In this document: in pieces, positions 21,097-56,061 of the stretch | Position numbering within the stretch: the stretch's first letter is position 1 | Layout of the letters: each line of letters begins with the position of its first letter | DNA from: Trichoplax sp. H2 | Lineage: Eukaryota | NCBI GenBank assembly: GCA_003344405.1 | Contig: NOWV01000017.1 | Coordinates: forward strand, 310,001 to 374,000 | DNA: 64,000 nucleotides | Reading direction: 5' to 3' | The notes under the pieces: model-generated | What the model was told of the DNA's origin: nothing | Seen by the model: the letters and a program-made list of their open reading frames with translations, nothing else | Databases searched by the model: none | Position numbers and translations under genes: made by a program

Positions 21097-24000
21097 TTAT
21101 TCCTCTTCGGCCTTCATGATTCTTACGAAGGAGAAGGGTTGGAATGGCATTCCTTGGCCATCGTAAAACTTATTTTGGAATTCAACCCTAAGACAAGGAG
21201 CCAAGGAAAAATTAAGTACGAAAATTGCTAACAGTATTTATCGAAAACTTTTACACTGAATAAAGCAATAGTAAATTATTGCAGAATCTCTATTAAAAGT
21301 AAAATAAGCGTGTCATGTAGACTCCATTACTAACCAATGCAAACGAAGTGCATGCAAGAAAGCGGAAAGGCCTTCCATGATTAACAATATTGCTATGGTT
21401 AGAGCTACAAAAAAAAACATTATTAATTCGGGAGTATCTATTACTTTTTTAATGAAATATCAAACATTTACATGTTATCTCAGTTTATCTCTATGTTTAG
21501 TAGTACGCCATGATTATAGGCAAGGATTAAGAAAATTTTTACCTGCCCAACCACCAAACATGAACCAAGTTACAACAAAACCGGCATAGCCATTTGTTGA
21601 AAAGCCAATCTTTAATACCATAACCCAAAGTACTTCCGATAATTCTAGAGAACGGAAGCAAGAATAAAATTACCAAAGTTATAAATTGTATGCCATGGAT
21701 GTCGCTGATTGTACAAAAACTATCTATCACATTTATTATACGTATAGCATGTTATAATGAAAAGTGTTCATTACTGTATGTCCTAATAGTGTGATTAGAA
21801 TATTTAATAATACCTGCGTGAGCTAAACTTAAAGCCCATAAACGTAGGTATGAAGCAGTATTTGAAATACAACCAAGACAATATTCAATAGTATGAATAG
21901 CTTGATGCACGAAAATTTCTCCAAAGTCGAACTACAAGAAAGGCAAGTAGGTCAAAAAGATTGATCTTAGCTGCAGCAGCTACATTGAAAAGTTCAGTCT
22001 TATCTAGTAATAATGATACTAATTAAATTGATTACTTCTTCTTCTTCTTCAGGCTCTTCTTTTTGCTCATTATGCTCAACTCCTTCAGGTGGCTCTTCTG
22101 ATTTTACAATTGGAGCTGTCTCTGACTATAATAATTTGTCATTGATAATAAGATTTTTTTTAATTTTAGGCTTGTAACACTGGATATGCAAAAGGACGCA
22201 AAATTAAGTTAGCATAAGAAGTTTCTCCTAGACAATTTAATATATCGCACTAGCAAATCATACGTACTGTGGTGTCGTAACGAACAGTGCTACCCTTAGC
22301 CGCCATGGCTTTTTGATGTTCTCGTCGTAAATACAATGGCTTAACAAGTAACATCCATGGGACAGCAACAACTGCCAATGCGACTAAAATGGGTTGCAGA
22401 ACTCCCTATAATTGAGATATTATTAACATCCAATAAATAAATTCGAAATATTGATAGAGTCCTCTATTGAACTTAATTCAAAATCAGTAGCTAAACTACG
22501 ATAATTGCATTATACTTTATTAATTATTACAGCTTTATAGCATTTAAATCCATTTAGATTAACTACGACATGAAATCAATTTGACATTATGCCATACGTA
22601 ATAATTGCAAACTAACCTGTCCTGCATACAGTAGTGAATCTTTAGGAATTGTTGCACCAAAATTCAAAAACATGTCGATCATAGCTAACAAAATACTTGG
22701 TTGCTATATGGTCATCAAATGGAGAAAGAAAAAACAATGATTTTCACTTTAGTAAATTTCAACTAGACGTTTTCTATAGCAGTTTAATATTTTTAAATGA
22801 TTGATTAGATATCAATTTTGATAATTATGTTGTACTTACGAATTCGCTATAGCAGGTAAATGCTAACCACTTGAAGAAAATTAATCCAATCATATAACCA
22901 AAGATACATCCCAAGAAAATAACCTAAAAGATGATGGTTTTAATTACTGAGTACAGAAGATATTCAATATCAATTGCACATCGATCGATCTTAACAGATG
23001 TAAATTTAGAATTTCGACTTTAAAGATCCATTTCAATCATAGTATGCGCATATCAATAGAAACTTTACGGTATTTCTATTCCTTATAGTTGAGACTAAAT
23101 TAAATAATAGCGTAACATGATTTTTAATAATTATATATACCTCAGGAATGAATTCGCAGTAGATGTTAACAGTTCTTTTAAAGTACCTGAATATTGTAGA
23201 ATACAGCCATATTTTAAATCAGTCATCGATTTATTAACAATACTTTCTTGTTTTACAGTTAATTTTTATTTACTAAAATAAATAACGTCCTTACAGGTGG
23301 TTCAACAGACTCAGGACAACACCAAAGGACATTTGGAATATGCCAAGAATAACTGACATTTTCATCTTGAAGGAGTTGGTAAAGGTCAGTTTATTAACTG
23401 CTAACTGCCAGATCTAGTTTGCAAGAGATGAATAGAATTATTTAAACGCTGCTCAGAAGTAGAAATGATTGTATAGAAAGGAGTTTGGAATATACCGGAT
23501 CTAAGCCCACTGGGTAAGGTGTTTGATTATGGAAAGCAGTCTTAGGGTTCAATTGAATATCGGAATGAGTTCGAACAAACTCATCGCTATAAAGTAGAAA
23601 TTTTAAATAATTTTAAAATAATTTTAATTGATAAGAAAATAAACCAGTTACAAATCACAAACTAATCCAATCATAACTGACCTCAAAGTCACATTGGAAA
23701 AGTACCATTGACTACCGAAAATGTTCAACGAACGAGAGAACCAATCGTTATAAATTGTACCAGTGTAGATGGCACAAATTCCCATAAGTAAAATAATGTA
23801 ACGACCACCAAAGACTGTATCTACCATCTAAATGGTATAATCATAGCGGAGAATGCATAATTATAATTTGAAAAATTTCTTAGGTAGTAGGGTTATGATT
23901 AGACATAATCATTTTAATATCACGGCTTATTTTAATTGCACTGGTAGTTAGAAACACTTTAATTAGAAATAAGTAGAAAATTGTGAGTAAAAAAGACGAA

Positions 24001-27000
24001 GGTTTGATTTGTTTTAGGATTAAGAAATTTACCTCACCACCTTTAATTTTAGCGATAGATTTTTCTTTCAAAACAAGATACAGGCCAAACAAGAACATTA
24101 ATGTTCCATGACCACTATCACCGAACATGACACCGAAAAGGAAAGGGAAAGTAACAATTGCAAATGGAGCTGTGAAAATACAATTAGACGTTATTAACCT
24201 AAGTTGATACAATAAAATGCACAAGACATTTATGGATCGTCTACTCGATGATTTACTTTTTTTTACCTACCTGGATTAACTTCCTGGTAATCTGCAACAC
24301 CGTAGGCATCGACGATATTTTGGAAACCATTAGTAAATTTATTGGTAATATTATATGTTGGAGGACTTTCTTTGGTTTCCATGCGATTTAAGATGGATGG
24401 TACAGTCGAGCCACTCTTTTCCTTTTTTAGTATTAATAATTTCAGTTAAAATTTCAAATGGTAGGATTATCAATAACATTTAATATCGTTAAATTTTAGC
24501 TAAATTATTCCATATTACTACACTATAATTAAAAAATTATCATAAATACTATAGTACTTCAAAATCTCAGTTATTCTTCTTAGCTATATATTAAAACTAT
24601 GGATCAATAACAACATATTATCATCGATTTCTTCCCTATAAGCATAACTAAAATTAGCTCTTACTGATCCTCTCTTAAGTGCTTGATGTATACGATCCAA
24701 GTCGTCAACTGCACACCAGCATTCAGCGATCAAACACTTATGAGTAACATCCAAGTTAAACATGTTCAATGCATGATAGATTCCCTTGATCTTCTTCACC
24801 TATAATAAGTAATGTTAGAAGAATTTTAGACACATTATCAAAAGTATATCTCTAACAAGCTATCATCTTAAGGCTCAAAATCCTACTTTAATGATCCATG
24901 GATTAATATTCTTTGCCGCAGCTCCTAACACGGTATTACGATGTTCTTTAGTTTGATTCAAGACCTATAATATAAAATTTTATAAGAGCTTATAAAAATT
25001 GAAATTATAACTGTATAATTCGGAGAAATTTGTAACTATCGAACATAAATTACCACTTGTAAATCTTCAATCCTTGTCATAACACCAATAGCCATTTCAC
25101 GCCTTTCAGCAGCATTTTCTGGACAAGGATATAAAGTTGCCTTGAAACTACAAAGTAATATGAGTAAGGTATTAAATAAGTAAAGTTTCTTCTTTTTCTT
25201 AAAAACCGATAGCAATCTACAATATACTAATTTAAAACGTACCCTTCACAGATTTTCTTGATTCGCAGTCTTAATTGTTCACCTTGGAAGAAAATGATGA
25301 AGACGCATTTGATGATAGAATCACCCTAATAGCAATTCAGTAAGGATGAATTGTCAGTAATTGCGAAATGGTTTCAATTTTCATCATGTAGGTCTTCGTC
25401 CTTAACTCTAACGATATCACTGGAATATAACGATCACTCTAGTCTAGATAGTATATTTAGTGGACTTACAGTGCGGGGATCTTCAAGAGGTGTTTCAATT
25501 TCAGCAGTTCTTAAAAAGACATTACCGCGACAAGCTCGCCATAACAGGCGTTCAAAGCCTGGTAAGGACTCTCGTTGGATTACACCTGTCACGAATCTAT
25601 AATTTGTAAACAGAGTCTGAGATCAATAACTTGTATAATAACAGACAGGTATTTTAGTTTATTAACCAAGGATTGGAAACAAACAAACTTTAAAAGGTAG
25701 CAAGTATTATTGCAATCATTGTAATGATTACTTACGAGAGTCTTTTGGCGGCTTGAATAGTTTTACCTTCTTCAGCTAGTAAAGCTTGCTGGTCATCATT
25801 ATTGGGCTGATCAGCAGTGATCTGATTATTTTCGACCTACATAGTATATATTTGTACCATAATTTGAGTATTATAGTCGTAATTTTAAAAAATAAAACTT
25901 AGCATAGTATAAGCAATCAAAATTTCCTAAGTAAATATCTCGTTTATGAAGTAGTTATTTGCAGGTATGTCTAACCTCGTCGAAAAATGTTTGCGTCTTT
26001 CGCAAGATGAACTTTAATTCAGTCAATTCAAGGAAATTCTTGTTAAGTGCTTCCTGATTGGAATTGATTTCTTTCATTTCATTTTCCAGTTGTTCGAATG
26101 TTGACTAAATGTCAAGAGGATTACAATTTTATCAATACATAATATAAGTTACAATTATTAGCTGTAGATTGAAATGATAAGCCGCTTTATCGCAAGTAAA
26201 GTAGATTTATCTTCATTTTCTTCTTGCATCGAGTAGCAAGTAAATAATAAGACTAAATTCTTTACTGGTAACGAAAATTTCAACATTATTCAATCACTGA
26301 TTAATAATTTCTTATAAATTTAAGTCAAAACTTAAATAGGGATTACTTCTAAGTCGATCATTTCGCGTGGTGGTGGAGCATCAGGAATATCCCCGGTGTC
26401 AACCATTGGAATAGATGCACGCTCAATTTCTTTGTATACGAAACCTATAAAATTTGCATAGATCAGTTAGATCTACTCGTATCATATAAATAATTTCCTA
26501 AACTAAAAATTATAAATACTGTACAATAACGACTATAACCTAAAGTACTCTTGCAAGGTATATTAACTGCAGATCATTTCTTTCTTATTTTATAACTACA
26601 ATAGACATACGTAATTTTCTCTCCATTTCTTCACATCTTCGTACTTCATTGACAAATTTACGTTGAAAGATATTGACATCAGGATTGAGCTAATGTAAGG
26701 AGAGTCATATTAGATCAAAGGCTGTAGTATGATTTTATCTTAAATAGAATTAGATTAGATAAGATTCCATTGTAAATTTGTCTTGTCTGCTAATGGCCAA
26801 CTTACATCGCGAAATTGGACAAGACCCTAAATAAATCCAAGAAAAACGATCCATTTTAACTTCATTTTAGCAAAAAATTATATGCCATATGTCCTTGGCA
26901 CCTTTAGTTTAACTATACTGTAGAGTGCTGTAAGATGGTTTTTACTTTAAAATACGATGAAACATTTATTATATAATTAATATTTTTAGATATGGAAAGA

Positions 27001-55700: not shown

Positions 55701-56061
55701 TGTTTTAGAGTTGTCCGAAGTACTTTGGAATATGGTCCTTCACATTGGTTTATCTTTCAAGGGTTATGTTGGTTCTCTGTTGATTTTTGCTACTTTCTGT
55801 GGTTGGGCTGGCTTAACTATCGCAATTTTGCTCGTAATGGAGGGATTATCAGCTTTCTTACACGCTTTGCGACTTCACTGGTAAAGTCATAACTATGCCT
55901 ATAGTGTTGTGTATGTAGACTGAGGAAAATCTTAAATCAATTTATTTCGAAATAGGGTCGAGTTTCAGAACAAATTTTATTCTGGTGAAGGGTATCTTTT
56001 CGACCCTTTCTCTTTCGAAAAAATGCTTAAAGAGGATGAAGATTTAGAAGATATACTATAA
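49753..56061 (+). CDS. ATP6V0A: V-type proton ATPase V0 subunit a (116 kDa), paralogue 2, multi-exon
   Basis: Starts [33 protein letters not shown]. Motifs: [63 protein letters not shown] and [22 protein letters not shown]. Ends [12 protein letters not shown] at 56059-56061. Confidence 0.96.

Follow-up and report, generated by a model that had tools for sequence, protein, structure and literature searches.

Two old inverted gene pairs, for V-ATPase subunit a and pyruvate dehydrogenase kinase, nested in mirror order in Trichoplax

Genes that stand as inverted copies of one another are known from several settings. For the 2h and 2q inversions of Drosophila mojavensis, single-copy genes are reported in opposite orientation flanking the inverted segment; these rearrangements date back 1.4–4.4 million years, their non-coding sequences are still alike, their parental order is known and one copy decays (PMC3355041). 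Palindromic segmental duplications that undergo gene conversion are likewise described as having mirror order around a short spacer, with arms that keep recognisable sequence identity (PMC3403216, PMC13688818). At the protein level, yeast (Vph1/Stv1) and human (a1–a4) are described as having intact V-ATPase a-subunits with a conserved proton-path motif and N-terminal divergence (PMC10313074), the coral Stylophora is reported to make four splice variants from one a-subunit gene, and vertebrates have the pyruvate dehydrogenase kinases PDK1–4. Here we analyse a 64,000-nucleotide stretch of the Trichoplax sp. H2 genome (Placozoa; contig NOWV01000017.1), called the window below, in which two a-subunit genes (ATP6V0A-L and ATP6V0A-R) and two PDK genes (PDK-L and PDK-R) form a nested mirror about a central axis.

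The locus resembles each of these systems in part. The 7.1-kb duplication of 2h is as large as the Trichoplax ATP6V0A gene (PMC3355041); unlike in D. mojavensis, neither Trichoplax copy has decayed, silent substitutions have reached saturation and any parental order is a hypothetical one. In contrast to palindromic duplications, the paralogous proteins are 60–62% identical, the non-coding sequences are unlike, the single genes enclosed by the two arms are not the same and the two pairs differ in relative depth. The a-subunits recall the yeast and human isoforms, but apparently have a separate origin outside the sampled bilaterian clade, and their genes are still 22 kb apart. The PDKs have the same domains as PDK1–4, but form their own clade on a long stem, with the sampled vertebrate isozymes grouping separately. 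The arrangement is genuine, and the processes behind it are known ones, namely local inverted duplication and lineage-specific isoforms. The stretch under study is intron-rich eukaryotic DNA of 34% GC, with the gene order ATP6V0A(-) MRM2(-) PDK(-) and, beyond the axis, PDK(+) METAP1D(-) ATP6V0A(+):

21097–27292, minus strand: ATP6V0A-L, V-ATPase subunit a; 836 residues, 25 exons; model identical to P0004; Pfam V_ATPase_I
30040–31552, minus strand: MRM2, FtsJ-type mitochondrial rRNA methyltransferase; exons 31552–31219 and 30506–30040; 266 residues; single copy
33187–37510, minus strand: PDK-L, pyruvate dehydrogenase kinase; 399 residues, 12 exons; model identical to P0001; Pfam BCDHK_Adom3 and HATPase_c
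39522–44525, plus strand: PDK-R; 404 residues, 12 exons; model identical to P0002; Pfam as PDK-L
45054–47471, minus strand: METAP1D, mitochondrial methionine aminopeptidase; from Pfam Peptidase_M24 and open reading frames; single copy; start codon inferred
49753–56061, plus strand: ATP6V0A-R; 854 residues, 24 exons; model identical to P0125 (Trichoplax sp. H2 name); Pfam match

We consider it probable, if only by a little, that this mirror was built in two steps within the placozoan lineage, without gene loss. In a first step, soon after the placozoan split, the a-subunit gene would have been duplicated, its copies flanking METAP1D–PDK–MRM2 in opposite orientation, as would result from an inversion whose break was staggered, or from tandem copies parted by inversion. 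In a second step, much later and before the split from the lineage of organism C (see below), a fold-back of PDK alone would have given two head-to-head genes with a promoter interval in common, and purifying selection would then have retained both pairs. Staggered-break inversions are described as leaving inverted gene copies at their breakpoints, with a 7.1-kb duplication in Drosophila (PMC3355041). Routes to the present arrangement were sought exhaustively among signed gene orders, and the layout would fit inverted copies flanking a segment whose order is reversed relative to a hypothetical ancestor. Provided that a copied gene can insert some way off, two-event routes without loss lead from four ancestral orders; they combine the insertion of an inverted a-subunit copy on the far side of three genes with a fold-back of PDK in place. 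When only adjacent duplication, loss and inversion are allowed, eight orders need three events, and two of these are a fold-back followed by two losses. The minus strand carries four of the six genes, one from each family; MRM2 and METAP1D, each present once, therefore need not be survivors of reciprocal loss. An earlier note, made from the sequence alone, had proposed such a loss; it is not required, as two duplications without loss give the same order in two to three steps. In vertebrates, METAP1D-like and PDK1 genes are listed as flanking DLX1/2 (PMC2685005, Table 1). Because of this arrangement the METAP1D–PDK linkage may be old. Human METAP1D and PDK1 are probably co-oriented, which would fit two-step ancestors only, a point to which we give little weight.

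The four duplicated genes were rebuilt by splicing the window at the coordinates above, with GT-AG introns throughout, and these exact models confirmed the mirror order, coordinates and midpoints that the earlier note had given for the two pairs. In protein searches, one pair of PDK exons matched two proteins under the names Trichoplax adhaerens and Trichoplax sp. H2, and one pair of a-subunit exons matched two further ones. Once aligned, the PDK paralogues agree at 246 of 396 residues, the a-subunits at 495 of 826 (60–62% identity). Ten of the 11 PDK introns are at identical positions, the remaining one being near and in the same phase; for ATP6V0A, 22 of the 24 left introns have identical positions, one falls in an unalignable loop, and intron 23 is absent on the right. 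This intron (21405–21542) was either gained by the left copy or lost by the right one, right exon 23 (172 nt) being equivalent to left exons 23 and 24. Four-fold sites are identical at chance level (26/83 and 50/161 in the two pairs); dating from synonymous changes was discarded as impossible. As silent sites are saturated, the proteins are 60–62% identical and the frames are open, all four genes have probably been under long purifying selection. No similarity beyond chance was found between introns: a shuffle z of at least 3 was reached by 3 of 34 pairs, but for 21 ATP6V0A introns the homologous pairs scored a mean of 17.9 (maximum 31) against 16.7 (maximum 30) for non-homologous ones. The earlier description of old paralogues with shared introns, diverged proteins and no visible intron likeness, all four copies having been kept, is borne out.

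The PDK copies are sister paralogues. In a tree of 32 sequences with a chytrid outgroup they form a clade with 100/100 support, on a stem of 0.77 with tips of 0.49 and 0.44, apart from four cnidarian and 25 bilaterian-side sequences; no sponge or ctenophore sequence was among them, and five of 51 PDKs were left out. An intron at QYFL-D is common to both copies, whereas two introns of the animal loci L002 and L003, one ahead of RF and one following QH, are missing from both; L003 likewise has no counterpart of PDK intron 9.

The a-subunit copies were recovered as a clade in two of five trees, with support of 0.985 among 98 sequences (FastTree) and 97/90 among 52 (LG+G4; stem 0.07, tips 0.31 and 0.58). 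An approximately unbiased (AU) test did not reject this clade (p 0.28 and 0.32). From these trees were omitted 41 of 150 representatives, whose best named non-Trichoplax match was a vertebrate protein, and a further 35 because of their length; the trees are thus without cnidarian a-subunits and vertebrate a2/a3/a4. Judging by these trees, the pair is most likely a clade that lies outside the a-subunits sampled from bilaterians. For anthozoans, a single a-subunit gene is reported in a source whose a-subunit tree includes Trichoplax (PMC7941709). Four introns common to both Trichoplax copies fall inside single human TCIRG1 exons as reported (c.1-117, 808-1020, 1674-1887; PMC8269383), which is compatible with sisterhood, although unpolarised. 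No further placozoan proteins were seen among the 120 matches listed for each of two homologue searches, nor among the 150 representatives; a metagenome scan gave four loci, none placozoan-looking; and for Hoilungia there was no row for this locus among the listed rows of supplements 12, 13 and 14 of PMC6067683, and none in file 16.

The two pairs differ in relative depth. Fixed-topology fits held left and right copies together with seven roughly matched bilaterian sequences, the species differing between genes in two of the matches. As a fraction of the distance back to the placozoan–bilaterian node, the depth of the split is 0.43 for PDK (stem 0.46, tips 0.35/0.35; 0.31–0.53 over 60 bootstraps) and, when the slower copy is used, 0.85 for the a-subunit (stem 0.059, tips 0.33/0.65; 0.73–0.99). 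The pattern is repeated under LG+C20, with depths of 0.30 and 0.86. One common date demands a median between-gene contrast of 7.3–8.7-fold in the ratio of post- to pre-duplication rate (a-subunit over PDK), with 95% ranges spanning 2.7–42 over three cnidarian placements in the PDK topology (100 resamples each); the share of resample pairs with a contrast of 1 or less was 0.0002 or less. Unique shared-derived residues at conserved columns number 5 of 138 for PDK and 0 of 246 for the a-subunit. All ages are relative, with no absolute dating. The earlier note had proposed one event of one age, and had itself named very different ages as speaking against it; the depths of 0.43 and 0.85 do not support that claim. 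Of its expectations for the gene trees, PDK sisterhood held fully, a-subunit sisterhood appeared in two of five trees, and similar divergence failed. Its suggestion of lineage-specific isoforms stands for PDK, which forms its own clade apart from cnidarian and bilaterian-side sequences, and is most likely correct for the a-subunit, where three of the five trees leave it unresolved. The equal age expected of a single fold-back is not seen as measured; a date shared by both pairs could be hidden by conversion or by shifts in rate.

Several points weigh against a two-step origin. The a-subunit clade was absent from a tree of 26 sequences under C20 (0% of 200 bootstrap trees) and was not recovered with 19 sequences under two models (5% and 14% of 200 bootstrap trees), so sisterhood here is model-dependent. 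Relative depth presumes a steady rate per gene; duplicated genes commonly accelerate, and inverted copies lying side by side can be homogenised. For two independent and rare duplications to fall one inside the other, within six genes and with arms of almost the same length, is a coincidence that one fold-back explains at once, and the spacing of start codons gives a sign-flip P of 0.024. No intermediate gene order was seen in an outgroup. Finally, the specialisation of ATP6V0A-R proposed below is conjectural, and this gene lies outside 27150–47100, the stretch over which reads were compared.

The symmetry itself is close. Midpoints of paired start codons lie at 38516 (PDK) and 38522.5 (ATP6V0A), those of stop codons at 38856 and 38579, and exon-pair midpoints fall within ~430 bp over 17-kb arms. 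The distances from PDK start to ATP6V0A start, 10218 and 10231, agree to 13 bp. Exact start symmetry as a constraint was rejected as post hoc, the starts being one landmark among midpoints that wander over 38516–38947, and we treat the 13-bp agreement as coincidence.

A single early fold-back that duplicated four genes as a block, with MRM2 and METAP1D then lost reciprocally, is the alternative that we take most seriously, and we hold it to be possible, though short of an even chance; the PDK pair would look younger through conversion or rate shifts. Such a fold-back would explain nesting, orientation and similar arm lengths at once, is a valid three-step route when joined with reciprocal loss, and would leave the nested mirror order in opposite orientation that is found here. 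It could have been followed by long arm-to-arm PDK conversion, or by acceleration of both a-subunits after duplication combined with a PDK burst before it. Palindrome arms are described as permitting conversion (PMC3403216), and patchy conversion could leave a PDK C-terminal half that looks younger than the N-terminal half (0.34 against 0.53) and an exon 11 with 95% protein identity between copies. However, only 5 of 16 four-fold sites are identical in this exon, and because silent sites are saturated even there, any conversion ended long ago. A single fold-back further needs a gene-specific rate contrast of ~7–9-fold, at least 2.7, or very long conversion of an 11-intron gene. No age gradient from the axis was seen: no younger signal was found towards it in either gene, the axis-near part looking older in both by noisy split-gene fits. 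A six-frame self-comparison of the window gave no mirrored coding match outside 21100–56043. The remnants of MRM2 and METAP1D that the earlier note had expected in the opposite arms were not found in the window (10 query pieces, best non-self E 0.095), and the inter-gene arms gave a best nucleotide E of 0.09, with the centre halves matching through ACAGT units only; absent arm similarity or relics are uninformative at such an age. A single fold-back survives only with gene conversion or opposite rate shifts, and is a serious rival.

The units at the centre belong to two repeat fields:

38450–38720, no strand: ACAGT/TACTG microsatellite field on the mirror axis, with a PDK start on either side; by read depth and motif bins
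48100–49560, no strand: second ACAGT field with a short local duplication, between the METAP1D and ATP6V0A-R starts; by self-BLAST and motif bins

In DNA run X1 the axis field has a depth of 12373 against ~65, or ~190x single-copy. We considered it as a scar of folding back and rejected this, as the repeat is genome-wide and occurs also at ~13000–14900 and 48000–49500. An (ACAGT)n microsatellite is reported upstream of Trichoplax genes, 54% within 1 kb (PMC2871265); it is the same pentamer in the same gene-upstream place, and we see no difference from it in what is described. The axis repeat marks promoters and is silent on the duplication, and it lies at the axis because the two PDK promoters are there. 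Placozoan promoter hubs are described as bearing a Mutator-linked motif (PMC12221973).

Sequencing reads were compared over 27150–47100. In DNA run X1, at least eight pieces follow the window and differ from it little, and one of them, a contig of 8.6 kb, runs across MRM2 and the greater part of PDK-L; among the contigs listed from DNA runs none bridges 38495–38861, where the genome-wide repeat piles up. Contigs from RNA run X19, whose library possibly contains DNA and whose depth was not used to rank genes, cover MRM2, both PDK ends (32316–33291 and 37400–38424 for PDK-L, 44395–45120 for PDK-R) and the PDK-R/METAP1D 3' region, with a loose end at the first donor of ATP6V0A-L. Run X21, from organism C, carries the same ACAGT repeat. 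One of its contigs matches PDK-L exons 2, 3 and 5 in order, with 20–24 differences per 146–155 bases, and a second matches PDK-R exon 3 with 25 differences and two gaps in 144 bases; both are too short for gene order. Since X21 has separate matches to PDK-L and PDK-R, and exon 3 is poorly conserved between the Trichoplax copies (just 46% identical in protein), the matches indicate that both PDKs are older than the split from the lineage of organism C, which is probably another placozoan.

A third account, which we regard as unlikely, is an ancient palindrome, not on a sex chromosome, with age strata. One fold-back near the placozoan origin would have been followed at once by divergence of the outer a-subunit pair, with the inner head-to-head PDK pair kept alike through arm-to-arm conversion for about half of placozoan history; the right-arm copies would then have become a co-expressed module for acid-secreting digestive cells, pairing a specialised proton pump with its own pyruvate dehydrogenase switch.

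It is less likely still, and in our opinion quite improbable, that the a-subunits split before Placozoa and that other animals lost the second copy, only the PDK pair then being placozoan-specific. The clade is unrecovered in three of five trees, the 246 conserved a-subunit columns hold no unique shared-derived residue, and ATP6V0A-L, the slower, a1-like copy, is closer to sampled bilaterian a1 (63–67%) than to ATP6V0A-R (60%). Against this, denser sampling unites the copies (97/90 with 52 sequences, 0.985 with 98 in FastTree), the AU test does not reject their union, no R-like orthologue stood out among the 150 representatives, anthozoans are reported with one a-subunit gene (PMC7941709), and the four common introns, though unpolarised, lie inside single TCIRG1 exons (PMC8269383). 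That two separate loci were falsely joined at the ACAGT repeat during assembly, as the lack of a listed contig across 38495–38861 might suggest, is scarcely credible, given that the six genes are consecutive in T. adhaerens (g02332–g02337; UniProt B3RPL7, B3RPL9, B3RPM0 and B3RPM2 for the duplicated four, from ATP6V0A-L to ATP6V0A-R), that H2 accessions RDD45297-9 are numbered consecutively with two on one 856-kb record, and that the arms have no nucleotide identity able to mislead an assembler.

All four duplicated genes are intact. Both PDKs contain BCDHK_Adom3 plus HATPase_c, their listed matches are mostly PDK-named, and they are related to PDKs rather than to BCKDK, a separate Trichoplax gene (g01422). 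Each keeps the catalytic N-box, G1, G2 and C-terminal DW motifs. The two diverged evenly; since they did so with catalytic motifs kept, they most likely split expression or regulation from the shared promoter interval, their ATGs lying 2012 bp apart. Full-length profile matches to V-ATPase subunit a (PF01496) score 1109 and 1068 bits for the two a-subunits, which share an identical 16-residue motif with the essential arginine, a role reported for R735 (PMC7941709). Because both keep this motif, both should pump protons. ATP6V0A-R evolved ~2x faster overall and ~5x faster in its first quarter (branch 1.10 against 0.22 for the left copy), the change being concentrated in that quarter, within the cytosolic N-terminal domain (aNT). 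This domain is described as carrying isoform-specific trafficking and regulation in yeast and mammals (PMC10313074), and the feeding groove of Trichoplax is reported to be acidified to ~pH 6, possibly from acidic lipophil vesicles (10.1101/2024.10.06.616844). The left a-subunit would have stayed a general a1-like pump subunit. From the pattern of substitution, we infer that ATP6V0A-R most likely targets the V-ATPase to a different membrane, for example acidic secretory vesicles or the surface in external digestion.

The genes themselves are already annotated; their arrangement is apparently undescribed. A re-annotation lists g02332 VPP1, g02333 MRM2, g02334 and g02335 as kinases, g02336 MAP12 and g02337 VPP1 consecutively (PMC6067683), and full-text literature searches, judged mostly by title and start of abstract, found no description of the mirror order or its history. 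MRM2 has Pfam FtsJ in both exons, whose boundaries were taken from the sequence, and has the same length as the Trichoplax_g02333 model. Peptidase_M24 was found in two of four METAP1D pieces scanned; the gene is convergent with PDK-R and divergent from ATP6V0A-R. One RNA-run contig (44395–45120) spans the last exons of PDK-R and METAP1D and extends on both sides, which suggests convergent and overlapping 3' ends. Upstream of PDK-L (37510–38424), the H2 model RDD45298 adds ~190 residues; as an RNA-run contig covers 37400–38424 without a skip, this may be a long 5' leader or upstream open reading frame. Our ATP6V0A-R model differs from P0005 at one residue. At 53575–53590, the acceptor in the database model adds five residues absent from the left copy, and the protein becomes collinear if another AG, 15 bases further downstream, is used; the published annotation has seven isoforms for ATP6V0A-R and one for the left copy. 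The exon 20–21 loop (54995–55388) has a basic stretch and YVQL, neither being present in the left copy. We take YVQL to resemble a tyrosine sorting motif.

Around the mirror lie a TopBP1/SLF1-type BRCT exon (10292–10495), a HIG1-domain gene (16789–17025), an L14/L23e ribosomal protein exon (19014–19235), a 714-codon stop-to-stop SKICH-domain frame (57397–59541) and a WD40 gene (62504–63232). Human relatives of several genes in the window (CALCOCO, ATP6V0A1, PDK1/2/4, RPL23, METAP1D) are on Hox-bearing chromosomes, so the block may be part of an ancient Hox-linked linkage group. Degenerate tandem or local repeats, with units of ~215 and ~290 bases at 75–88% identity among them, occur at 8810–9560, 11670–12830, 13750–14600, 18090–18320 and 48130–48920.

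At this locus, very old local duplications are still in place, and are readable thanks to the slowly rearranging placozoan genome. A neat palindrome of genes need not represent a single event. ATP6V0A-R is a concrete candidate for the proton pump behind acidic external digestion in placozoans. If the history proposed here is true, placozoan a-subunit and PDK isoforms evolved independently of those of vertebrates.

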